Positions 7,426-45,801 of a stretch of DNA of 64,000 nucleotides are shown piece by piece. The notes under the pieces were generated by a model. That model saw only the letters and a program-made list of their open reading frames with translations. It did no database searches and was not told the origin of the DNA. The translations under genes were made by a program, and so were the position numbers. Every line of letters starts with the position of its first letter. The first letter of the stretch is position 1. The stretch covers positions 455,050 through 519,049 of the forward strand of contig JBEKML010000001.1 of NCBI GenBank assembly GCA_050008535.1, written 5' to 3'. The stretch comes from Minisyncoccia bacterium (lineage in GTDB: Bacteria; Patescibacteriota; Minisyncoccia; UBA6257; 2-01-FULL-56-20).

Positions 7426-8993
7426 TCGTAGCCCTTATCGTCGCCTACGCGCTCTTAGGGTTTCATATTTATCAATTGCAGCTGGTGAAGGGGGATTATT
7501 ATTTCGCGAAAGCGCAGACCCAGATTTTGGCGTCGCGCGGCGTGAACGGCGACCGCGGGTCCATTTATTTTACCGATAAGGACAAGAGCGCATTGCCGGC
7601 GGCGTTGGAAAAGCAATTTCCCATGATCTACGCGGTTCCCAAAGCGATCGACGATGCCGCGGAAGCCGCCAACACCATGGCGCCCATCCTCGGCATGCCG
7701 GTTTCTGCGCTGCAGAAGATTTTTTCCCGGCCAAACGACGCATACGAACTTCTCACGCGGAAAGCGGACCAGTCGGTTGCCGATCAGGTTACTCAAAAAA
7801 ACATGAAGGGGATCTATGCCGATTTTGAGCCCGCGCGTTTTTATCCTTTGGCGACCACCGCTTCGCAACTGCTTGGCTATGTGGGGCCGAACGCTTCGGA
7901 TACCGGCGAGAGCGGCCACTACGGCATTGAGGGATTTTACGATGATGAACTAGGAGCGGGGACGGACGTCAATCTGACGATCGATCCGAACGTGCAGATC
8001 GAGGCGGAAAAAATTTTGGACGACCTTATTGCGTCGCAGAATGCTACGGGCGGGAGCATCATCGTGGAAGATCCGATGACCGGAAAAATACTCGCGATGG
8101 GGAGCTCCCCCGATTTTGATCCCAATAATTATTCCGCATCTCCCATCGCTGACCTTCTGAATCCGGTGGTGCAAAAAGTCTATGAGCCAGGATCGGTCTT
8201 TAAGGTGCTCACGATGGCGGCCGGCATTGATGCGGGGAAATTGACGCCTACGACGACCTACTACGATTCCGGCACGGTGACGGTGAGCGGGAAAAAACTT
8301 TCCAACTACGACCTTGTGAAGCACGGGCCTTACGGCGTGGCGACGATGACGAACGTGATCGAGCACTCCATCAATACCGGCGCGGTTTTTGCGGAAGGGA
8401 AAACCGGCAACGCCATTTTCGCGGAGTATCTGAAGAAGTTCGGATTGAACGAGAAGACCGGCATTGATCTGCCCGGGGACCTTGCGGGGAATTTGAACCA
8501 ATTAAGCCCGAAGGCGCCGCAAGTGGCGTTCGCGACGGCTGCCTATGGCCAGGGAGTGGCGGTGACGCCGCTTGAACTCATAAATGCCCTCGCAGTGATC
8601 GCGAACGGCGGGAATCTTATGCGGCCGTACGTGAATGCGGCGCTTTCGCCCGGGGTGATCCGCCGGGTGATAAGCACAAGCACTGCGGAACAAGTGACGG
8701 CAATGATGATCTCCGCGGTTGACAAGGCGCAGGTGGCCAATATTGAGGGATATTCGCTTGCGGGGAAGACCGGGACCGCGTTCATTCCTGATCTTGTGCA
8801 TGGCGGTTATACTGACAAGGTGATTGACTCGTACATCGGCTTCGGACCGACCACCAATCCGCGCTTCATCGCGCTCATTAAGATCGATGCGCTGCCGAGC
8901 ACGGCGCTCGCGGCGCAAAGCGTGGTGCCGGCGTTCAAAGAGCTTTCGCAGTACCTGATCAATTATTATAATATTCCTCCGGACCGCCTATGA
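7401..8993 (+). CDS. ftsI: Penicillin-binding protein (class B transpeptidase, FtsI-like)
   Basis: 530 aa. N-terminal TM segment. SVFK (SxxK) active-site motif. KTGT motif (AGKTGTA). PBP dimerisation plus transpeptidase architecture. Confidence 0.85.
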   Translation: MAYRFALLIVALIVAYALLGFHIYQLQLVKGDYYFAKAQTQILASRGVNGDRGSIYFTDKDKSALPAALEKQFPMIYAVPKAIDDAAEAANTMAPILGMPVSALQKIFSRPNDAYELLTRKADQSVADQVTQKNMKGIYADFEPARFYPLATTASQLLGYVGPNASDTGESGHYGIEGFYDDELGAGTDVNLTIDPNVQIEAEKILDDLIASQNATGGSIIVEDPMTGKILAMGSSPDFDPNNYSASPIADLLNPVVQKVYEPGSVFKVLTMAAGIDAGKLTPTTTYYDSGTVTVSGKKLSNYDLVKHGPYGVATMTNVIEHSINTGAVFAEGKTGNAIFAEYLKKFGLNEKTGIDLPGDLAGNLNQLSPKAPQVAFATAAYGQGVAVTPLELINALAVIANGGNLMRPYVNAALSPGVIRRVISTSTAEQVTAMMISAVDKAQVANIEGYSLAGKTGTAFIPDLVHGGYTDKVIDSYIGFGPTTNPRFIALIKIDALPSTALAAQSVVPAFKELSQYLINYYNIPPDRL

Positions 8994-10306
8994 CTTTCAT
9001 AAAACAATTTTTTGTTCGCTTGCTCGGGTGGCATATGCGCCTCCTCGCGCGGCTTACGATCTGGCGCTACCGGCCGGGCATCGTGGGCGTGACGGGGAGC
9101 GTGGGGAAAACGTCCACGAAACTCGCGATCGCGGCGGTGTTGGGTGCTGTGCGCCGCGTAAGGGCCTCCTCGGGCAATATGAACAATGACCTTGGCCTGC
9201 CGCTCGCGATCTTGGGCGACTGGTCGCCGGAGGAATTGCGGCTCGTGAGCCGCGACACGCCGGCAGGCAAAAAACGCCTGCGAAAATTCTTTTTCTGGTG
9301 CAAGGTGATCACGGTCGCCAAATGGCGCATCATCGTAAAATCAAAAGAATATCCGGAGATCCTTGTTTTGGAATACGGCGCGGACCGGCCGGGCGACATT
9401 AAACGTTTATTAAGGATCGCGCGGCCGAACGTAAGCGTGATTACGGCGGTCGGGGAGTATCCGGTGCACGTGGAATTCTACGGGGGGCCGGAAGGCGTGG
9501 CGCGCGAAAAAGGACGGCTTATCGAATGCCTCACTGCGGCCGGCTCTGCCGTTCTGAACTATGACGACGAGACGGTGATGGATCTTGAGCCGCGCACGCG
9601 CGGAAGGGTTTTTACCTACGGTTTCGAGAACGGCGCAGGGGTGCGGATCGCGCGGTTCGAAAATCGCATTGAGGCCGACCGGCCTGCCGGCGTTTCTTTC
9701 AAACTTGAGTGCGCCGGAAATTCGGTCCCGGTGCGACTCGCGAATGTTTTCGGAAAAGCGCAGGCCTATGCTTCCGCCGCCGCGGCCTCGGTCGGTTTGA
9801 TTTTCGGGATGAATCTCGCTAAGATTGCGGAAGCGCTCGGGAATTATCGGTCCGCGGATTCGCGCATGCAGCTCCTGCCCGGGATAAAAGACACTCTTGT
9901 GATGGATGATTCCTATAACGCGAGCCCGCTTTCCATGCACGCGGCGCTTGATACCCTGCGCGATCTTCCCGCGAAACGGCGGGTTGCGGTCCTTGGCGAC
10001 ATGCTTGAGATCGGCAAATATGCGCCCGAAGCGCATGAGCGCGTGGGACGCCTTGCGGCGGGATCGGCGGATGTCTTGTTCACTGTCGGCCCGCGCGCGA
10101 AATTCATTGCGGAAGCCGCGGAAGAACAGGGAATGAAGCGGTCCAACGTTCATTCTTTTGATACGGCCGACGAAGCCGTGGAGCTGTTGCAGACGCTCCT
10201 CAAAAAAGGAGACCTTGTTTTGGTAAAGGGTTCTCATGCGATGGAATTGTATAAAATAGTGGAAGAAATAAAAGCAGTAATGCCGTCATCGTCTAGTCCG
10301 GTCTAG
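8990..10306 (+). CDS. murF: Mur ligase family, probably UDP-MurNAc-tripeptide--D-Ala-D-Ala ligase MurF
   Basis: GIVGVTGSVGKTSTK P-loop typical of Mur ligases. About 440 aa fits MurF. Its 3' end overlaps tRNA-Glu by about 25 nt. Confidence 0.65.
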   Translation: MTFIKQFFVRLLGWHMRLLARLTIWRYRPGIVGVTGSVGKTSTKLAIAAVLGAVRRVRASSGNMNNDLGLPLAILGDWSPEELRLVSRDTPAGKKRLRKFFFWCKVITVAKWRIIVKSKEYPEILVLEYGADRPGDIKRLLRIARPNVSVITAVGEYPVHVEFYGGPEGVAREKGRLIECLTAAGSAVLNYDDETVMDLEPRTRGRVFTYGFENGAGVRIARFENRIEADRPAGVSFKLECAGNSVPVRLANVFGKAQAYASAAAASVGLIFGMNLAKIAEALGNYRSADSRMQLLPGIKDTLVMDDSYNASPLSMHAALDTLRDLPAKRRVAVLGDMLEIGKYAPEAHERVGRLAAGSADVLFTVGPRAKFIAEAAEEQGMKRSNVHSFDTADEAVELLQTLLKKGDLVLVKGSHAMELYKIVEEIKAVMPSSSSPV

Positions 10307-10356
10307 GACGTCGCCCTCTCACGGCGAAAACTCGGGTTCGAATCCCGATGGCGGTA
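10282..10356 (+). tRNA. tRNA-Glu (anticodon CTC)
   Basis: Close resemblance to canonical tRNA-Glu (GTCTAG...GGAC D arm, anticodon loop CTCTCAC, T arm CGGG-TTCGAAT-CCCG). Confidence 0.8.
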
Positions 10357-12876: not shown

Positions 12877-13500
12877 ATGAAACGAAGCGATTGGTGGGCG
12901 ATCGCCATTATTGGAGCGGCGGTGGGGCTTCTCTCTCAGCCGATTTTGGCGAACGTGGCGGGCTCGTTCCATGTTGATCTCACGCTTGCAGTGCGCGTGG
13001 CGATATTCGTCGGTTTTACGATCCTCGCGCCGCTTGCGCTCTTTGTGCTTTACCTCCTGGGAAAGTTGGTGCCAGTACTCTATCAATTCGGGAAATTCGC
13101 GGCGGTGGGGGTGCTCAATACGTTCGTTGACATCGGCGTCCTGAATCTTGAAATCTTGGCGTTGGGGACGCCTGCGGCGTGGCCCTACCGGATCATGAAA
13201 ACGATCTCGTTCCTTGCGGCGACCACGAACAGTTTCCTCTGGAATAAGTTCTGGACGTTCGGTTCGCGCGAGCCGGCCAGTTCTTCGGAGACCATAAAGT
13301 TCTATCTGGTGGCAGTAGGGGGATTCCTCCTGAATGTGGGGGTGGCATCCTACGTTTTCAGCGGCATCGCCGCGCCGGCCTCGATTTCCCCGAACCTTTG
13401 GGCGAACATCGGCGCGCTCGCCGGCGTGGCGGCGGCATTTCTCTGGGATTTCCTGGGTTACAAGTATATTGTGTTCAAAAAGCCCGCAGAGCGGGTATAG
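12877..13500 (+). CDS. GtrA-family membrane protein (polysaccharide-synthesis associated)
   Basis: Four TM helices. QFGKFAAVGVLNTFVDIGVLNL is the GtrA-like signature. Confidence 0.65.
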   Translation: MKRSDWWAIAIIGAAVGLLSQPILANVAGSFHVDLTLAVRVAIFVGFTILAPLALFVLYLLGKLVPVLYQFGKFAAVGVLNTFVDIGVLNLEILALGTPAAWPYRIMKTISFLAATTNSFLWNKFWTFGSREPASSSETIKFYLVAVGGFLLNVGVASYVFSGIAAPASISPNLWANIGALAGVAAAFLWDFLGYKYIVFKKPAERV

Positions 13501-13553
13501 GGCTGGGCTGGGCAAAGCTGGGCCGGGCTGGGCCGGGCCAGCCCGGGCCGAGA
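13501..13553. repeat. Low-complexity GGCTGGGC/GGCCGGGC microsatellite-like tract with an embedded palindrome
   Basis: ggctgggctgggcaaagctgggccgggctgggccgggccagcccgggccg, seen directly. Confidence 0.6.
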
Positions 13554-13554
13554 C

Positions 13555-13583
13555 TTGCACCTTTTTGGGATATCTGCTATAAT
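13555..13583 (+). promoter_or_regulatory. Sigma70-type promoter TTGCAC-17-TATAAT
   Basis: Near-consensus hexamers with 17-nt spacing. Confidence 0.5.
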
Positions 13584-13589
13584 GCCAGT

Positions 13590-13690
13590 GAATGGGTGCG
13601 AGTTTTCCTTAACGACGACGTCGACTGAGGAAAATCCCACACAGTTCTTTTTGGCCAAGAGCCCCTGCAAAGGGGCTTTTGGTTTAATTG
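13590..13690 (+). ncRNA. Candidate ~100-nt small RNA or murB leader: promoter-proximal transcript with an internal hairpin, ending in an intrinsic terminator (AGCCCCU-GCAA-AGGGGCU plus UUUUGGUUUAAUU)
   Basis: Bounded by the consensus promoter and a GNRA-looped GC stem plus U-tract at 13655..13690. Internal hairpin TTTTCCT..AGGAAAA. No convincing ORF, since the only ATG overlaps the -10 box. Confidence 0.35.
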
Positions 13691-13887
13691 AATTTTAATG
13701 CCGATATTCTATACTGATTGCGGAGCCGGCTGGAGAGCACTCATTCAACCACAAAAAGAATTGGAGGTCACCACAGCCGCTCCACTCAGTCCTTTCGTGA
13801 AGCCCCCGTGGGTGTTCCGGTTTGGTGCAGGGGAGAGGCCTGAGTGGAGCGGCGTTTCTTGTGTTCAGTTGCCGGCCCAGAATAACC

Positions 13888-14859
13888 ATGCCAACATTTC
13901 AGGGAAACGTACCGCTTGCGCGTTACAGCAACTACAAGATCGGCGGCCCGGCGCGGTTTTTTTTCGCGCCGAAAAACGAAAAAGAAGTGCGATGGGCCGT
14001 TCAAGAGGCGAAGAAAAAAAAGCTGCCCGTTTTTATTTTGGGCGGCGGGACCAATCTCTTGATCGACGACCGCGGTTTTGACGGGCTCGTCGTGCGGCCG
14101 AACCTTCTTACCCTTAAGGCGCAGGGGACAGAACTCACGGTGGGCGCGGGCGTTTTGATGCGGGACCTCCTCGCCTTTTGCGTGAAAAAATCCCTTTCGG
14201 GCCTGGAGTGGGCGGGTGGGCTCCCGGGAACCGTTGGCGGCGCCATCCGCGGGAACGCCGGCTGTTTCGGCGGCGAGATGAAAGACGCAATAGCGTCGGT
14301 GCGCAGTTTCGACACAAAGACGATGAAGATCATCGAGCGGCCGGCACGACGATGCGCCTTCGGCTATCGCATGAGCATTTTCAAGAAAAAACAGGGGCAG
14401 GAGATCATCCTTTCGGCCACGTTCCGCATGAAAAAAGGGGATAAAAAAAAGATCGCCGCCGCGATCCAGGAAAAGATAATGCATCGCAAAAAGAGCCACC
14501 CGTTGGATTACCCCAATATCGGGAGCATTTTCAAGAACATCCCGCTGCACGCGATCCATAAAAAGGGGAGCGCGCATTACAAAAAAGCCGTGCAGGAAGG
14601 GACGCTCACATTCCGCGGTTCAAAGTTTTCCGTGAAGACCGACCCGTTTCCTGTGATTTCGGCCGCAAAGTTGATCTCCGAAGCCGGCCTTCGTGGCGTA
14701 AGCGTCGGCGGCGCCATGATCTCTGTGAAGCACACGAATTTCATCGTGAACGTTTTGGGCGCGGGGTCCCCGGAGGTGAAGGAGCTTATCCAGCTCGCGA
14801 AGGCCGCCGTGAAACAGAAGTTCGGGTTATTATTAGAAGAGGAGATACAAATCGTTTAA
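13888..14859 (+). CDS. murB: UDP-N-acetylenolpyruvoylglucosamine reductase MurB
   Basis: FAD-binding N-terminus (YKIGGPARFF, ILGGGTNLLIDD) and MurB C-terminal domain. Start at ATG 13888. Confidence 0.85.
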   Translation: MPTFQGNVPLARYSNYKIGGPARFFFAPKNEKEVRWAVQEAKKKKLPVFILGGGTNLLIDDRGFDGLVVRPNLLTLKAQGTELTVGAGVLMRDLLAFCVKKSLSGLEWAGGLPGTVGGAIRGNAGCFGGEMKDAIASVRSFDTKTMKIIERPARRCAFGYRMSIFKKKQGQEIILSATFRMKKGDKKKIAAAIQEKIMHRKKSHPLDYPNIGSIFKNIPLHAIHKKGSAHYKKAVQEGTLTFRGSKFSVKTDPFPVISAAKLISEAGLRGVSVGGAMISVKHTNFIVNVLGAGSPEVKELIQLAKAAVKQKFGLLLEEEIQIV

Positions 14860-14869
14860 CGATGCATCT

Positions 14870-15208
14870 ATGAAAATCAATATTAAAGCGAATCTTGATC
14901 TGACGGCGTCCCTAGGCACTTATATAGACCAGAAGCTTGCCCCGCTTGCGAAGCTCGTGAAGAAATTCGACGAGACCGGCGAGGCGGAGCTTTGGCTTGA
15001 GCTCTCGCGCACGACGCGGCATCACAAAAAAGGAGGAGAGGTTTTTCTCGCGGTTGCGGATCTCCGCTTACCGCGCAAGATCCTCCGTGCGGAGGAATAT
15101 GCCGAGGATGTCCGCAAAGCCATTGACCGCACGAAAGACACCCTGCGGCTGGAAATTGAAAAGTATAAAACGAGGTTTATGGAGCCGAAGCGGGGTCGAA
15201 AAGGTTAA
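14870..15208 (+). CDS. hpf: Ribosome hibernation-promoting factor / RaiA family (short form)
   Basis: 112 aa. MKINIKANLDLTASLGTYIDQKL...EVFLAVADLRLP matches the S30AE/HPF fold pattern. Confidence 0.7.
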   Translation: MKINIKANLDLTASLGTYIDQKLAPLAKLVKKFDETGEAELWLELSRTTRHHKKGGEVFLAVADLRLPRKILRAEEYAEDVRKAIDRTKDTLRLEIEKYKTRFMEPKRGRKG

Positions 15209-15488: not shown

Positions 15489-16028
15489 CTAGTGGGACCA
15501 AGCGATCTGCCCCCGGTAACCAGTTGCAGCCCGCAGTTGGCCATCGATTCCTGCGTTGAACCGGAGATTGCCGATCCCCGCCATGGTGTTGTTTGTGCCC
15601 TTGAGCACATTCAACCCAATAGCGAGAAACCGCCAATGCCCCCCGCGTCGGTATAGATTCCGACTGAGCATACCCAAGCCGGCATTCAGAGCGACGTTCG
15701 CCGCAACAACGGCGCCCGCGTTCCTTTTGCCAACAATGGATCCTGCCCAACCGTTCTCTACGCCGGAGAAGCGCCCCAAGACGGTGTTACCCGCCCCAAG
15801 CGCCACCGTGGGATGATTCAACACCTTGAGGGTGCTGATCATATCCAATGCCGTCCCAAAACCGAGATACCACTCAGAAGTCCTAAAGAGGATATCCAGT
15901 TTCCTGGATCCCTCCCTTGGCTCCTGTAGGGTCCTCGTTTGGAATTGCTGGATTTGAGCACGAGCGGGTGATGTCGCCATCACCAGTAAAACTCCCAATC
16001 CAGCACAGGTCTTGATGTGTGGTACCAC
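15489..16028 (-). CDS. Hypothetical secreted Gly/Ala/Asn-rich protein (GTG start, strong RBS, signal peptide)
   Basis: AAGGAGGTG lies 7 nt upstream of the GTG. VVPHIKTCAGLGVLLVMATSPARA|Q is a signal peptide with an AxA site. Codon usage is more AT-rich than the neighbouring genes. Confidence 0.45.
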   Translation of the reverse strand: MVPHIKTCAGLGVLLVMATSPARAQIQQFQTRTLQEPREGSRKLDILFRTSEWYLGFGTALDMISTLKVLNHPTVALGAGNTVLGRFSGVENGWAGSIVGKRNAGAVVAANVALNAGLGMLSRNLYRRGGHWRFLAIGLNVLKGTNNTMAGIGNLRFNAGIDGQLRAATGYRGQIAWSH

Positions 16029-16171
16029 AGTACAACACCTCCTTATGGTGAGGTTTACAGCTGGAAGTAATTGTACCATAGAATAATTATTTTGTCCAAT
16101 TTTTGCGCAGGGCGTGCGGGACGCCACAGAACATGGAAATTTCTTCTCGAAACGCCTATAATCCTTAAGCT

Positions 16172-18823
16172 ATGTTGGATTCTCTAAAGAAATTTTTCCA
16201 TAGGCGGTCGTTCCAATCGCTTGAATTGAGGGTTCAGGAGATCAACGCGCTTGAACCGGAAGTTCAAAAACTTACCGATGAAGAATTAAGGGCGGAAAGT
16301 TTGAAGCTGAAGGAACGGGTGGCGGTAGCGGCGGCCGAACACGAAACCGAGCGCGAGTCGGATATCGCGGGCGGAGCGGTACTTGAGGAAATCCTTCCGC
16401 GTGCGTTCGCGCTCGCGCGCGAGGCGGCGAAACGGACGCTCAACCAGCGTCCGTTTGATGTGCAATTGCTCGGCGGGCTCGTGCTCCATAAGGGCGCGGT
16501 GGCGGAGATGATGACGGGGGAGGGGAAAACGCTTGCGGCCGTGGCGCCCGCTTACCTGAACGCGCTTGCGGGGAAGGGCGCGCACATCGTTACCGTGAAC
16601 GAATATCTCGCCCGCCGCGACGCGGTGTGGATGGGGCAGATATACCGGGCGCTCGGGCTTTCCGTTGCGTGCTTGGTTCCGAACGCAGCATTCCTTTACG
16701 ATCCCGAATGGAAAGTGCCTGCCGATACGGAAAAAATGATAGATAAAGAGCGCGATATGACTGGCAGCTTTTTGGTGCAGCAGGACTTTTTGCGTCCGAT
16801 AGCGCGGCACGAGGCGTATCTTGCGGATGTTACGTATGGCACGAACCATGAGTTCGGTTTTGATTTTTTGCGCGATAATCTGGTGTACCGCTTGGAAGAT
16901 CGTGTCCAGCGCGAACATTATTTTGCGATCATAGATGAAGTGGACAGCATTTTAATAGACGAAGCGCGGACGCCCTTGATCATTGCGGCGCCGGATTCGC
17001 AATCAAGCGACGCATACAAAACGTTTGCCCGAGTCGCCGCGCTTCTTGAGAAAGATAAGGACTACGAAGTGGACGAAAAGCGGAAGTCCGTTGCGATCCT
17101 GGATGCGGGCGTGGAAAAGGTGGAAAAAGTGCTCGGCATCCAGAATGTGTATGCGCCGGAAAACATCCGCCTTGTGCATTATTTGGAGGAAAGCTTGAAG
17201 GCGAAGGCGCTCTTTCATCGCGACCGCGACTATGTGGTGAAAAACGGCGAAGTGATCATTGTGGACGAGTTCACCGGGCGCATGTTGATCGGCCGGCGCT
17301 ACCAGGCGGGGCTGCATCAGGCGATAGAAGCAAAGGAGGGCGTGAACGTAAAAGAAGAATCGCGGACGTACGCGAAGATCTCCATCCAGAACTATTTCCG
17401 CATGTACGAAAAAATTTCCGGCATGACGGGAACCGCGCAGACCTCCGCCGAGGAGTTTTTCAAGGTGTACAAACTTGAAGTGATGAGCATCCCGCCGAAC
17501 CGGCCGCTCGTGCGGCGCGACATGAACGATCTCATCTACAAGAACTTCGGAGCGAAAATCGACGCGATAGTGCGCGAGGTAGGGGAACGGCAAAAGAAAG
17601 GCCAGCCGGTCCTTATCGGGACGACTTCCATCGCAAAAAACGAGATCCTCTCCTCTGCGCTTTCCAAAGCTGGTATCCCGCACGAAGTACTGAACGCGAA
17701 GAACAATGAGCGCGAAGGCGCGATCATCGCACAAGCGGGTCGGGTGGGGGCGGTGACGGTCGCGACGAACGTCGCCGGCCGCGGCGTAGACATCATCTTT
17801 GGCGGCAACCCGCCGAAGCCTACGGACGAGACAAAGGTGCGCGAGCTCGGCGGTCTGCACGTGGTGGGCACCGAGCGGCACGAGGCGCGGCGCATCGACA
17901 ATCAGCTCCGCGGACGCGCGGGGCGGCAGGGCGATCCGGGTTCCTCACAATTTTTCCTTTCCGCCGAGGACGACCTTCTGCGCATCTTCGGCGGCGAGCG
18001 GCTGGGCAATATGATGAAGCGGCTTGACCTTCCGGATGACCAGCCGATCGAATTCAAATTTGTGACGAAGGCCGTGGCGCAGGCGCAGGAAAAAGTGGAG
18101 GGCGCGAATTTTGATCTTCGGAAACATCTGCTGGAATATGACGACGTATTGAACAAACAGCGCGCGGCGGTCTATAGGCGCCGGTCGGAATTTTTGGGTT
18201 TGATGAACAAAGAGGAGGTTGCAAAAACGATCGCGGATGCCGCCCTCGCGCATTTCGAAATGGCGCTTGCGCCGGCATTCGAGGAACCAGGTTCAAAAGA
18301 GCGGCGCGAAGAGATGGCAAGAGTATTTAAAGAAGCGCAGCTTATCCCGAACGGCGCCGCCGGCGACATTGTGTTTGAAAATTTGAAGACCGCCGAAGAT
18401 GCCCGGACGTTTATAGAAGAACGATCCGCACGCGTGGCGGAGAACCAGCTTGCAAAGGGGCAGCTCTTGGGCATTTTGGACATGCTTTGGATGACGAATC
18501 TTGAGGATCTTGAGGCGCTTTCCGAATCCGTCGGCCTCCGCGCGTACGGCCAGCGCGACCCGCTCGTGGAATACCGCCACGAAGCAAGCCATCTTTTTAA
18601 AGATTTCTGGCGCAATTTCAATGGGATGGTTTTTGTGAATGTGTTCAAATTGATCAATACGGCGGGGCAACCGGCTGCGGGACGATCGGCGGCAAGCGGC
18701 GCCGCCAATCAAAACCGGGTGGTCTTGCAATCTTCCGGCGGCGCACACTCGGGAAAAATCGGCAGGAACGACCCATGTCCTTGCGGTAGCGGCAAGAAAT
18801 ATAAGCGCTGTCATGGCGCTTGA
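16172..18823 (+). CDS. secA: Preprotein translocase ATPase SecA
   Basis: 883 aa. Walker A (MMTGEGKTLAA) and DEAD-like motor. C-terminal zinc-binding CPCGSGKKYKRCHG. TATAAT 10 nt upstream of the ATG. Confidence 0.95.
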   Translation: MLDSLKKFFHRRSFQSLELRVQEINALEPEVQKLTDEELRAESLKLKERVAVAAAEHETERESDIAGGAVLEEILPRAFALAREAAKRTLNQRPFDVQLLGGLVLHKGAVAEMMTGEGKTLAAVAPAYLNALAGKGAHIVTVNEYLARRDAVWMGQIYRALGLSVACLVPNAAFLYDPEWKVPADTEKMIDKERDMTGSFLVQQDFLRPIARHEAYLADVTYGTNHEFGFDFLRDNLVYRLEDRVQREHYFAIIDEVDSILIDEARTPLIIAAPDSQSSDAYKTFARVAALLEKDKDYEVDEKRKSVAILDAGVEKVEKVLGIQNVYAPENIRLVHYLEESLKAKALFHRDRDYVVKNGEVIIVDEFTGRMLIGRRYQAGLHQAIEAKEGVNVKEESRTYAKISIQNYFRMYEKISGMTGTAQTSAEEFFKVYKLEVMSIPPNRPLVRRDMNDLIYKNFGAKIDAIVREVGERQKKGQPVLIGTTSIAKNEILSSALSKAGIPHEVLNAKNNEREGAIIAQAGRVGAVTVATNVAGRGVDIIFGGNPPKPTDETKVRELGGLHVVGTERHEARRIDNQLRGRAGRQGDPGSSQFFLSAEDDLLRIFGGERLGNMMKRLDLPDDQPIEFKFVTKAVAQAQEKVEGANFDLRKHLLEYDDVLNKQRAAVYRRRSEFLGLMNKEEVAKTIADAALAHFEMALAPAFEEPGSKERREEMARVFKEAQLIPNGAAGDIVFENLKTAEDARTFIEERSARVAENQLAKGQLLGILDMLWMTNLEDLEALSESVGLRAYGQRDPLVEYRHEASHLFKDFWRNFNGMVFVNVFKLINTAGQPAAGRSAASGAANQNRVVLQSSGGAHSGKIGRNDPCPCGSGKKYKRCHGA

Positions 18824-27798: not shown

Positions 27799-28218
27799 TC
27801 AGAGAACGGGGCCGTCGTTATAGGTTGCGTAGTCCGAAGTAAGTTCTTCTCCGGCTTTTATTTCACGAAGAGAGGTGAAGCGCCCCCCAACAGAATCAAC
27901 TTTTATATTGGGAGTTGTGGAATAGTTTATGAAAGAACTGATAGTGATATTGTTGAGACCGTCTTTCGGGACAAGATAACAATTTTCCCGGTAGACACAT
28001 ATGTCGTCTACATATTTTTTCACGGATTCGGGGATGGCTGGATCGTTCATGATCTCGGCCTCCGGGATTTCGGTGAATTCGATGTTGTCTCCCGGAAACG
28101 GGTCAATGCCGGGGGGGATGTCGCGGATGGCGAAGAGGCCCACGCCGCCGAGCGGCGAAGGTTGCGGGCGCACATAGACACCGTTCTTTAAGTTGGCGAT
28201 CAACAGCGATTTATCCAT
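27799..28218 (-). CDS. Minimal SET-domain protein (putative protein-lysine methyltransferase), paralog A
   Basis: GGVGLFA (GxG), INYSTTPN (NHSxxPN-like) and GEELTSDY (ELxxDY) SET signatures. 139 aa. Confidence 0.7.
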   Translation of the reverse strand: MDKSLLIANLKNGVYVRPQPSPLGGVGLFAIRDIPPGIDPFPGDNIEFTEIPEAEIMNDPAIPESVKKYVDDICVYRENCYLVPKDGLNNITISSFINYSTTPNIKVDSVGGRFTSLREIKAGEELTSDYATYNDGPVL

Positions 28219-28284
28219 GCAATAATATTACTATTATAAGTTGTCTAAACCAAGACGAGATGGTATTATCGAAAAAACAATAAT

Positions 28285-31929: not shown

Positions 31930-31985
31930 CCGCGCGGCGCGTGGCGTGGTGCTTCGCATGGCCGGCCGCGTTATAATGAGAATCA

Positions 31986-44511: not shown

Positions 44512-45801
44512 GTGATCAATTATAAGAAACTGCCGGAAACACCCGGCGTGTATTTGATGAAGGACGCCGCCGGCCGCGTGCTCTATGTCGGCAAAGCGGG
44601 TAATTTGCGCCGGCGGGTTTCAAGCTACTTTGAGCGGCCGCATGATGTGCGCATAGAGGCGCTCGTAGTGAAAATAAAAAAAGTTGATTACGAAAAGACC
44701 GATACGGCATTGGAGGCGCTCATCCGCGAGGCGGAATTGATCAAAACGCTCATGCCGCCGTTCAATGTGCGTGAAAAGGACGACAAAAGTTTTTTGTACA
44801 TTGAGATTACGAAAGAAAAGTTCCCGCGCGTGCTTTTGGTGCGCGGGAAGGACGGCGCCGGGCAAGGCAAGCGCTACGGCCCTTTTGTGTCCGCCTCAAG
44901 CGTCCGTGAGGCGCTCAAAATTTTGCGGAAGATCTTTCCATGGAGCATGCACGATCCAGAACGCGTCGGGAAATTCGCGCGACCCTGCTTTGATTGCGAG
45001 ATCGGTCTTTGTCCGGGCACCTGCGTGGGTGCGATCTCACGCGAAGAATATCTAAAAAACATCGGGCGGTTACAGTTCTTTTTGGAAGGGGAAAAGAAAC
45101 GATTGCTTCAATCGCTCACGAAGGAAATGAGTGCTGCTGGCAAAAAACTTGAATTTGAAAAAGCGGAACGCCTGCGCCGGCAGATCTTCGCGCTCCAACA
45201 TATCCGCGACACGGCGCTGATCGCCGATTCCGAAGTGCTTGTGCCCGCAGGGCGGGGTACAAGGAGCTATCGTATTGAGGGCTATGATATTTCAAATACC
45301 TCGGGCACGTCGGCGGTCGGTTCCATGGTGGTGTTTGAAAATGGCGAGCCGGACAAAAATGAATACCGTAAATTTAAGATCCGCAGTGTTTTCAAACCGA
45401 ACGACGTAGGCATGCTCACGGAGATTTTGGAGCGGCGATTCAAGCATTTCTCCGGCGGCCGCGTTCGTGTTGGTCAGATGGGTAATGCGCACAAGGGAAG
45501 CGGGGATGTCGGCGTGCAGAATGGCTGGCGTCTGCCTGACCTCGTTTTGATTGACGGCGGCATCGCGCAGGCGAACGCCGCGCGGCGGGTGCTTTTGCGC
45601 ACGGGTTTGCGGATCCCTATAGTCGGTATCGTGAAAGGTCCCGAGCGCAAGCGGAATGATATTCTCGGCGCCATTCCGAAAGGAGTGCAAAAAGCGACGC
45701 TTGTCCGCGTGCGCGACGAGGCGCACCGGTTCGCCATCGGCTATCATAAGGCCCTTCGCCGCGGCGCTTTTTTGCCGGGCCGGGAATCGCGAAAGGGATA
45801 A
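44512..45801 (+). CDS. uvrC: Excinuclease ABC subunit C, short form (GIY-YIG plus UvrBC-interaction plus endonuclease region; appears to lack the C-terminal (HhH)2 domain)
   Basis: GIY-YIG (GVYLMKDAAGRVLYVGKAGNLRRR), Cys cluster, UVR helix (EKAERLRRQIFALQHI). 429 aa against about 600 for canonical UvrC. Confidence 0.72.
   Translation: MINYKKLPETPGVYLMKDAAGRVLYVGKAGNLRRRVSSYFERPHDVRIEALVVKIKKVDYEKTDTALEALIREAELIKTLMPPFNVREKDDKSFLYIEITKEKFPRVLLVRGKDGAGQGKRYGPFVSASSVREALKILRKIFPWSMHDPERVGKFARPCFDCEIGLCPGTCVGAISREEYLKNIGRLQFFLEGEKKRLLQSLTKEMSAAGKKLEFEKAERLRRQIFALQHIRDTALIADSEVLVPAGRGTRSYRIEGYDISNTSGTSAVGSMVVFENGEPDKNEYRKFKIRSVFKPNDVGMLTEILERRFKHFSGGRVRVGQMGNAHKGSGDVGVQNGWRLPDLVLIDGGIAQANAARRVLLRTGLRIPIVGIVKGPERKRNDILGAIPKGVQKATLVRVRDEAHRFAIGYHKALRRGAFLPGRESRKG

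Follow-up and report, generated by a model that had tools for sequence, protein, structure and literature searches.

What occupies the 387 nucleotides (nt) that separate a gtrA-like gene from murB, the gene for UDP-N-acetylmuramate dehydrogenase, in a Minisyncoccia bacterium of the candidate phyla radiation (CPR)? The gap was analyzed within a stretch of 64,000 nt (contig JBEKML010000001.1, positions 455,050 to 519,049; hereafter the window, numbered from its first letter), and all genes surrounding it lie on the + strand. An earlier note on this DNA had read the region as a structured leader of murB with separate hairpins, and had proposed that a short transcript near its start is either an independent small RNA (sRNA) or a terminated murB leader. 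The comparison with homologous loci presented here points instead to a likely two-RNA system for the regulation of murB, and not to a metabolite riboswitch recognizable from the window alone. An sRNA gene (module A) appears to be followed by a separately transcribed murB leader (module B), and the sRNA is complementary at two sites to the loop of the leader hairpin P1. The explanation that we favor, and consider probable, is a cognate sRNA-leader pair in which the sRNA controls attenuation of murB through the choice between P1 and an overlapping terminator hairpin, T2, with a logic resembling that of T-box leaders.

Two predicted transcription units between gtrA and murB

Homologous loci were fetched for comparison with the window (L001-L199), and conservation was assessed on a sample of 80 murB loci from one-genome-per-species contigs. 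In more than 20 genomes, a segment of approximately 220-250 nt of the gap sequence (~13542/13573-13795) is retained ahead of murB at 70-89% identity, compared to only 57-81% for the MurB proteins of these genomes. The conservation of the region upstream of murB in relatives, on which the earlier note had made its reading depend, is therefore strong, and it is accompanied by covariation. The conserved DNA consists of two modules with a spacer of variable length between them, which reaches ~370 nt in L011; in L019 and L036, BLAST matched the second module only. A promoter and terminator scan of the region returned about as many sites as shuffled sequence, and open reading frames (ORFs) of 47 and 127 amino acids (aa) overlap the region, as would be expected if the hairpins were ordinary and unrelated elements, such as a terminator of the upstream gene, chance palindromes or a small ORF. 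This explanation is already contradicted by the extent of identity across distant relatives and by covariation in six helices, and we give it almost no credence. The two small ORFs were ruled out, as neither has a Pfam match and relatives carry frame-breaking indels.

Module A begins with a promoter of the extended -10 type, given the TG at 13575-13576 in its spacer. Among 79 distinct homologous upstream regions, TGn is found in 69 and a -35 element starting with TTG in 70, the -10 element is TATAAT or a near variant, and in 63 it ends 6 nt before the G of GAAUG. From this conserved geometry, the sRNA most likely starts with GAAUGGGUGC at 13590. The consensus promoter scanner omitted this site, the -35 element of which matches at only 3 of 6 positions. 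The sRNA stretch is predicted to fold at -44.2 kcal/mol (z = -6.2), and none of 200 shuffled sequences was as stable. The + strand is taken to be the RNA strand because its many G-U pairs would turn into A-C mismatches if the opposite strand were transcribed, and 1-nt indels between relatives speak against a coding function of module A. In an alignment of 50 genomes, which also underlies the pairing counts below unless another sample is given, 12 of the 14 pairs in sRNA hairpin 1 have changed on both sides, and the hairpin has a conserved internal loop. The hairpin T1 has 94.5% of cells paired and compensatory changes at 8 of 12 pairs, and its G+C-rich stem is directly followed by a U-run, as in an intrinsic terminator. 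T1 was not returned by the terminator scanner, probably since the T-run can be drawn into a longer stem.

The apex of hairpin 1 carries a 6-nt palindrome in 77 of 85 distinct sRNA homologues, compared to ~13 in shuffled sequences. The palindrome varies by lineage (GAUAUC in 42, GACGUC in 28 and UAAUUA in 6), and a variant with CGACGAUAUCG keeps it even though the top stem pair turns into C-A. This suggests loop-loop dimerization of the sRNA or a symmetric partner.

Module B begins with a second promoter, TTGAAT-16-TATACT, which was the only site returned by the promoter scan. The T, A and T of its -10 element are each at least 90% conserved in 50 genomes, and 6 nt separate the end of this element from the first G of P1. 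When all subfamilies are aligned, 9 of the 10 pairs of P1 itself have changed on both sides; within the subfamily of the window, covariation of this helix is uninformative, as a 1-nt bulge shifts the alignment register. The P1 loop is nearly invariant and reads A-GA-GCACUC(A/G)UUC, a linker of 3-6 nt, CAAA(N)AGAA(Y)(Y)G and then GAGGUCACC. When the loop is free, helix P2 forms within it between CUC(R)UUC and GAA(Y)..GAG; this helix is 97.7% paired and covers part of the invariant GGAGG, and one of its pairs covaries as AU 23, GC 16, GU 7 and AC 0.

Both RNAs, their promoters and terminators, and the helices P1, P2 and T2 are thus supported by comparison of relatives, and the region appears to consist of two transcription units rather than one leader. 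The alternative would be a single long cis leader running from 13590 to murB, with a riboswitch-like pseudoknot between A and B and with T1 as an attenuator or a mere stable hairpin. Such a leader would fit the usual position of module A, which precedes module B on the same strand by 0-150 nt, as well as the unusually stable folding of the 306-nt region (z = -5.85 on the + strand vs -3.4 on the - strand), and read-through of T1 would give one RNA with the same helices. However, the distance between the modules ranges overall from -2 to ~1,400 nt, module A is 0.6-1.4 kb away from module B in eight loci (L086, L093, L098, L123, L145, L181, L190 and L199), and it is on the opposite strand in four (L110, L128, L150 and L168), with the cognate complementarity kept. 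In addition, P1 is preceded at a constant distance by a conserved -10 box, the stretch from T1 to the second promoter is unconserved and of variable length, and T1 has a canonical stem and U-tract. A single cis leader is accordingly improbable. The variable distance and the occurrence on either strand make module A an independent unit rather than the 5' part of the murB leader, by all appearances an sRNA gene with its own promoter and terminator.

Several elements of the earlier note can be recognized in this arrangement. The TTGCAC-17-TATAAT promoter at 13555-13583 is present, with a geometry that is conserved in relatives, as is the GNRA-looped GC stem with a U-tract at 13655-13690, which has 12 bp, a GCAA loop and compensated pairs. 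Of the two proposals for the transcript between them, the sRNA is retained on account of its own promoter and terminator and its variable distance and strand, and the terminated murB leader is abandoned on account of the second promoter that follows T1. The view of the region as one structured leader had missed this second promoter, the complementarity between sRNA and loop, and the place of T2 as one half of an antiterminator/terminator pair. The coordinates of all features are collected in Table 1.

Table 1. Predicted features of the gtrA-murB gap and the adjacent genes, in window coordinates
Feature	Position	Strand	Description
sRNA promoter	13555-13583	+	-35 TTGCAC 13555-13560, 17-nt spacer, -10 TATAAT 13578-13583
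Module A, putative sRNA of ~95 nt	13590-~13686	+	Probable start at the G of GAAUGGGUGC, through the terminator U-tract
Seed A1	13590-13599	+	5'-terminal, GAAUGGGUGC; complementary to B1
sRNA hairpin 1	13602-13635	+	Apical palindrome GACGUC 13617-13622
C-rich motif	13636-13640	+	CCCAC, between hairpin 1 and T1
Seed A2	13642-13653	+	CAGUUCUUUUUG, after the C-rich motif, between hairpin 1 and T1
T1, predicted intrinsic terminator of the sRNA	13655-13666/13671-13682	+	12 pairs, GCAA loop, UUUUGGUUU, U-tract to 13685
Second promoter (murB leader)	13688-13715	+	TTGAAT, 16-nt spacer, TATACT 13710-13715
Module B leader hairpin	13722-13783	+	P1 formed by 13722-13732 with 13774-13783, loop of ~40 nt
B1	13737-13746	+	GCACUCAUUC, in the P1 loop
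Intra-loop helix P2	13740-13746 with 13758-13766	+	Inside the free P1 loop
B2	13752-13763	+	CAAAAAGAAUUG, in the P1 loop
Invariant segment	13763-13772	+	GGAGGUCACC, in the P1 loop, contains GGAGG
T2, long hairpin	13776-13866	+	Arms 13776-13796/13833-13853, U-rich tail GUUUCUUGUGUUC
GtrA-like membrane protein gene	12877-13500	+	First gene of the neighborhood
murB	13888-14859	+	323 aa; Pfam FAD_binding_4 and MurB_C
hpf/raiA-type S30AE gene	14870-15208	+	Directly after murB
secA	16172-18823	+	Further downstream of hpf

Cognate pairing between the sRNA and the leader loop

The sRNA is complementary to the P1 loop at two places: A1 is the exact reverse complement of B1 if G-U pairs are allowed, and A2 is the inverted-repeat partner of B2. 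For A2:B2, compensatory (double-sided) changes are found at five pairs, with states such as GC 30, UA 12 and AU 2 at one pair and GC 23, GU 11 and AU 10 at another, and an anchor-based tally finds 49 of 50 genomes complementary at the central position. As three Watson-Crick states occur at this center in both P1 subfamilies, the changes must have arisen more than once. The covariation makes A2:B2 an intermolecular helix as far as the aligned genomes can tell. The case for the A1:B1 helix, with 93.6% of cells paired, is weaker, as it comes from near-complete complementarity and one-sided changes (G-U/A-U/G-C). Some compensation at this site is masked by an alignment shift, in that GAACG variants pair with CGUUC in what amounts to a two-step change. 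Pairing calculated with RNAduplex extends from the C-rich motif next to A2 into the leader GGAGG; in L127 the motif is CCUCC.

Taken over the whole structure, 89.6% of cells are paired, compared to 80.8% in shuffled controls and 37-46% in slid controls, and on all five measures none of 500 shuffles reached the observed value. Cognate duplexes are also predicted to be more stable than non-cognate ones among 84 genomes, at -12.1 vs -9.3 kcal/mol for A2:B2 and -15.2 vs -14.8 kcal/mol for A1:B1, each with 0 of 2000 permutations. The locus L168, in which the sRNA gene is divergent, carries three compensated differences from the commonest seed, with AACUAUUUG/CAAAUAGUU in place of UUCUGUUUG/CAAACAGAA. 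Compensated seeds next to a divergent sRNA gene exclude a palindrome at the DNA level and indicate that the pairing works in trans. A DNA palindrome or operator as the basis of the complementarity was also ruled out by the tolerance of G-U pairs and by the complementarity kept wherever the sRNA gene is on the opposite strand.

If the sRNA had its main targets elsewhere, the leader loop could be a sponge or decoy, or the sRNA could reside in a ribonucleoprotein with the leader complementarity secondary. The conserved apex of hairpin 1, with its lineage-specific palindromes, and the conserved internal loop would suit a partner other than the leader, in some leaders the binding loop is repeated, with two or three copies nested in one another, and outside the leader the sRNA finds its best site in the window antisense inside uvrC. 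Against this, module B is present in a single copy in the 64 kb, and the tight genomic linkage of A and B together with their covariation point to B as the primary partner, so that we attach only a very small probability to a sponge or ribonucleoprotein role. Analogies with the hairpin ribozyme, an RNase P external guide or an RNase Z guide were discarded, as the helix order is unfit for a tRNA-like substrate, and neither ribozyme core motifs nor Rfam matches were found in the sRNA or the leader.

The site in uvrC (44512-45801, +) lies in the interior of the gene at 45073-45140, where the minus strand reads GCACTCATTTC, 45 nt and then CCAAAAAGAACTG, that is, a B1-like site followed by a B2-like site in the same order as in the leader. 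No other non-self site in the window pairs better with the sRNA seeds; the summed energy is -37.8 kcal/mol, ~4.7 standard deviations from the mean. Equivalently, the uvrC mRNA carries sRNA-like seeds within codons of the UVR motif. The resemblance may reflect chance or coding constraint.

A predicted choice between P1 and T2

The earlier note had also described a second long-range hairpin between T1 and murB. The hairpin exists, although its 16-mers, 44 nt apart, lie at 13777-13792 and 13837-13852, ~6-9 nt away from where they had been placed, and it is part of a longer structure, T2, with arms of 21 nt that are 90% complementary, 36 nt apart and predicted to fold at -46.9 kcal/mol. T2 shares 13776-13783 with the 3' strand of P1 (AGCCGCUCC). 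In the subfamily to which the window belongs, comprising 35 distinct loci, the basal 14 pairs of T2 are 96.7% paired and six are compensated (for example G-C to U-A in L004, L007 and L043), with 0 of 500 shuffles on four of five measures. In most of these 35 loci, UUUUUGU follows the T2 stem, as in a canonical intrinsic terminator. The full leader is predicted to fold into T2, and a leader cut at 13786 into P1. A shared strand combined with a U-tract after T2 suggests that P1 acts as an antiterminator and T2 as a terminator, a mutually exclusive pair that is found in the window's subfamily and is missing in the second, long-P1 subfamily.

Under the mechanism that we favor, unit A would yield an sRNA of ~95 nt from its own strong promoter and end at its own intrinsic terminator. 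Unit B would yield the 5' leader of murB from the second promoter, with its first 62 nt forming the P1 hairpin and the free P1 loop folding on itself as P2. The 5'-terminal 10 nt of the sRNA would then pair with B1 and its 12-nt pre-terminator segment with B2, and the C-rich motif could reach GGAGG. Together with P1 and hairpin 1 of the sRNA, the two A:B helices would make a four-helix junction atop P1. Binding of the sRNA to the nascent loop would set whether P1 survives or T2 forms, and this choice would determine the amount of transcription that reaches murB and probably also hpf behind it. The usual adjacency of the sRNA and leader genes might allow a fast co-transcriptional encounter. That binding of the sRNA alters termination is what we infer from the overlap of P1 and T2, and the direction of the effect is uncertain. 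We lean slightly toward stabilization of P1, and thus toward read-through, because relatives with a P1 of 17-25 bp, which cannot plausibly open, have retained this loop and its linkers, and the complex must there be compatible with a closed P1.

Several observations weigh against this mechanism. The ends of both transcripts are predicted from promoter and terminator geometry. With respect to the pairing, the column-based count of A1:B1 returns one-sided changes only, and 15 of 50 parsed genomes have A opposite C at one position of A2:B2, a position that is better explained by the intra-loop helix P2. The A:B helices are in parallel order, 5' with 5' and 3' with 3', with a loop linker of only 3-6 nt. 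With respect to the terminator, the T2 U-tract is weak in the window (GUUUCUUG); in the window and its nearest relatives (GUUUCUUGUGUU), the stem is that of an intrinsic terminator and the U-run is imperfect. The tract is missing in some of the closest relatives (L001, L041 and L175). Finally, 72 of 107 distinct loci belong to the long-P1 subfamily, in which P1 has 17-25 bp, is often lengthened by outer helices and is followed by no recognizable terminator, so attenuation cannot be the universal output there.

These last observations feed the main rival explanation, in which the sRNA does bind the leader loop and the output is translation or mRNA stability, with T2 a structural element rather than a switchable terminator. 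The sRNA might open P2 and thereby expose or cover GGAGGU, a rare strong site for binding the anti-Shine-Dalgarno sequence in a genome poor in Shine-Dalgarno (SD) sequences, or the duplex might be cleaved by an RNase. In the long-P1 loci, the murB start codon follows the element at a distance of 26-60 nt and the stem, in some cases, at 2 nt, and GGAGGUCACC is invariant, partly sequestered by P2 and within reach of the C-rich motif, which is a perfect CCUCC in L127. SD-like sequences precede only 8 of 75 murB genes located behind module B and only 10 of 54 long ORFs of the window (by a loose definition), and the weak U-tract of T2 in the window would likewise be expected. On the other hand, 120 nt separate GGAGG from the start codon of murB in the window, and the distance is no less than 31 nt elsewhere, which is too far for a normal SD sequence, and the overlap of P1 and T2 together with canonical U-tracts is conserved in the window's subfamily and hard to explain without termination. 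For these reasons we regard translation or stability as an unlikely main output, while the sRNA may act at that level in the long-P1 lineages. For the window's own subfamily, sRNA-controlled attenuation through P1 and T2 remains the reading that we prefer.

As these genomes hardly use SD sequences, the invariant GGAGGU in the loop is conspicuous, and the 30S subunit or a protein may contact it. The distance of 120 nt rules out the GGAGG at 13763 as the SD sequence of murB, and a split ribosome-binding site bridged by a hairpin would still leave ~41 nt. No SD-like sequence was found ahead of the murB ATG in the window. Many genes of the window have a TATAAT box that ends 7-12 nt before the ATG, for example at 16142-16171 before secA, at 31956-31985 and at 27799-28248, which suggests that mRNAs of this genome are mostly leaderless or have very short leaders.

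Distribution of the RNA pair

A pattern for module B (GAGCACTCNTT...GGAGGTCACC) was found in at least 119 stretches of a metagenome collection, and in 75 of them, among the matches listed, murB is immediately downstream. Other stretches carry module B directly upstream of hpf (S30AE; L093, L127, L159 and L170) or of secA (L129, L144 and L178), with both assignments confirmed by Pfam; in L083, the element precedes the gene of a DNA_processg_A (DprA-like) protein at a distance of 247 nt. As hpf and secA are also the genes that follow murB in the window, the element appears to track the murB-hpf-secA block and not murB alone. A profile search for module A with nhmmer gave 103 matches, in ~100 of the fetched loci. 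The close homologues of the window MurB are labelled Candidatus Paceibacterota in the source databases, and the pair thus recurs, to judge from these searches, in well over 100 loci attributable to Paceibacteria (CPR). It is therefore conceivable, and we put this forward tentatively, that the pair is a class-wide device of Paceibacteria, in which an adjacent sRNA docks at two sites onto a leader loop, builds a four-helix junction and sets the antiterminator/terminator choice of the murB-hpf-secA block, and hence of cell wall synthesis, ribosome hibernation and secretion.

Some murB leaders hold two or three nested copies of module B, with a complete inner hairpin inserted between B1 and B2 of the outer unit. 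An extra domain of ~100-190 nt, closed by UCCCGC/GCGGGA, was also found inserted exactly between AAUUG and GAGGUCACC; it contains motifs common to several loci and has no Rfam match. Nested copies or inserts are located at L019:2500-2960, L011:2600-2960, L098:4930-5210, L143:6370-6760, L193 (-) 8380-8610 and L087:1390-1560. The nested leaders and the self-complementary loop of the sRNA give a hint of cooperative or dimeric binding.

Neither RNA belongs to an Rfam 15 family. At the gathering score, Rfam returned six tRNAs only for the whole window, and at E<=10 the interval 13400-14000 gave only sub-threshold chance matches to eukaryotic microRNA and untranslated-region models and to unrelated sRNAs, in keeping with the earlier view that no known riboswitch class is recognizable. 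A search of 16 diverse homologous loci at E<=5 gave nothing consistent on module A or B.

Other features of the window

The murB start at ATG 13888, as given in the earlier note, agrees with the length of 323 aa found in most homologues, and an upstream start at TTG 13822 was ruled out on the same grounds. Right after the stop codon of the gtrA-like gene, at 13500-13554, is a G+C-rich run of GGGCY pentamers (GGGCTGGGCTGGGCAAAGCTGGGCCGGGCTGGGCCGGGCCAGCCCGGGCC), which can form a hairpin with arms 13520-13534/13535-13549 and no U-tract, and which is missing in the closest relatives L001 and L002. Between hpf and secA, a minus-strand ORF of 212 aa at 15489-16127 has no Pfam match and is the only break in the murB-hpf-secA series. 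Elsewhere in the window, the last 25 nt of a Mur-ligase-like ORF (8990-10306) overlap a predicted tRNA gene (10282-10356), and five tRNA genes are clustered at 2270-4521.

Relation to known RNA systems

The predicted pair resembles T-box leaders (RF00230) in the two-site contact between a 5' leader and a second structured RNA, the sites being distant from one another and matched 5' with the 5'-ward and 3' with the 3'-ward site, and in the choice between an antiterminator helix and an overlapping intrinsic terminator. It differs from them in its effector, which would be a dedicated sRNA of ~95 nt encoded beside its target rather than a tRNA; at 13300-14100, no tRNA or transfer-messenger RNA (including the permuted form) was found by ARAGORN, and none by the Rfam tRNA model. 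The leader has no Stem I, specifier loop or T-box sequence (UGGN bulge) and no match to the T-box covariance model at E<=10, and the loop sequences of the window, GAGCACUCAUUC and GGAGGUCACC, do not match the T-box sequence. Both contacts are inside a single hairpin loop, with ~22-27 bp in total, and the downstream genes are murB, hpf and secA instead of aminoacyl-tRNA synthetase or amino-acid genes.

In the countertranscript attenuation of plasmid rep genes (pT181 RNAI, pIP501 RNAIII and pAMbeta1), an antisense RNA of the same DNA acts by full complementarity. The common element is a small, terminator-ended RNA that acts on a nascent leader and picks one of two structures, one of which is an intrinsic terminator. 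In contrast, the sRNA described here has its own gene, usually upstream on the same strand, and would act in trans, with a complementarity that is limited to covarying seeds of 10 + 12 (+3-5) nt.

Like module A, trans-acting sRNAs have their own promoter and Rho-independent terminator and two seeds, one of them 5'-terminal, and they pair with a structured 5' untranslated region. At the sequence level, module A thus has the properties of such an RNA, namely an independent gene and covarying seed complementarity. Unlike the usual case, the sRNA is encoded next to its target, both are inherited together throughout a class of bacteria, and the target is a highly conserved hairpin loop rather than a ribosome-binding site. 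Trans sRNAs that act on riboswitch leaders have been described for OmrA and btuB in E. coli (PMC11162775) and for an sRNA-riboswitch interaction in S. aureus (bioRxiv 10.1101/2024.09.30.615890).

The raiA motif RNA (ModT; RF03072), an independently transcribed non-coding RNA just upstream of the hpf/raiA neighborhood (PMC5737381, PMC10861870, PMC12968392), is a single RNA of ~200 nt with helices P1-P6, two pseudoknots and ~51 conserved positions (PMC10861870) and is found in Bacillota and Actinomycetota. The likeness is one of neighborhood only, as the order here is murB-hpf, with module B directly upstream of hpf in some contigs. Homology was ruled out, as no match to RF03072 was obtained at E<=10 or E<=5 and two RNAs with different helices are present here.

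Implications

No description of this RNA pair, nor of any CPR sRNA or leader regulon, was found in the literature, and the pair is apparently undescribed. With both RNAs missing from Rfam, two new models would become available for CPR genomes. The promoters, terminators, seeds, target loop and expression platform are delimited to the nucleotide from the sequence, with covariation in ~100 genomes. If the sRNA does set termination in the murB leader, it would link trans-acting sRNAs with effector-sensing leaders of the T-box type. CPR bacteria (Patescibacteria) have tiny genomes with few recognizable regulators, and the pair addresses that gap at genes that are central to growth, namely those for peptidoglycan precursor synthesis, ribosome hibernation and SecA. 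If the proposed mechanism holds, this would be, as far as the literature was found to cover it, the first sRNA-target pair defined for any CPR bacterium.

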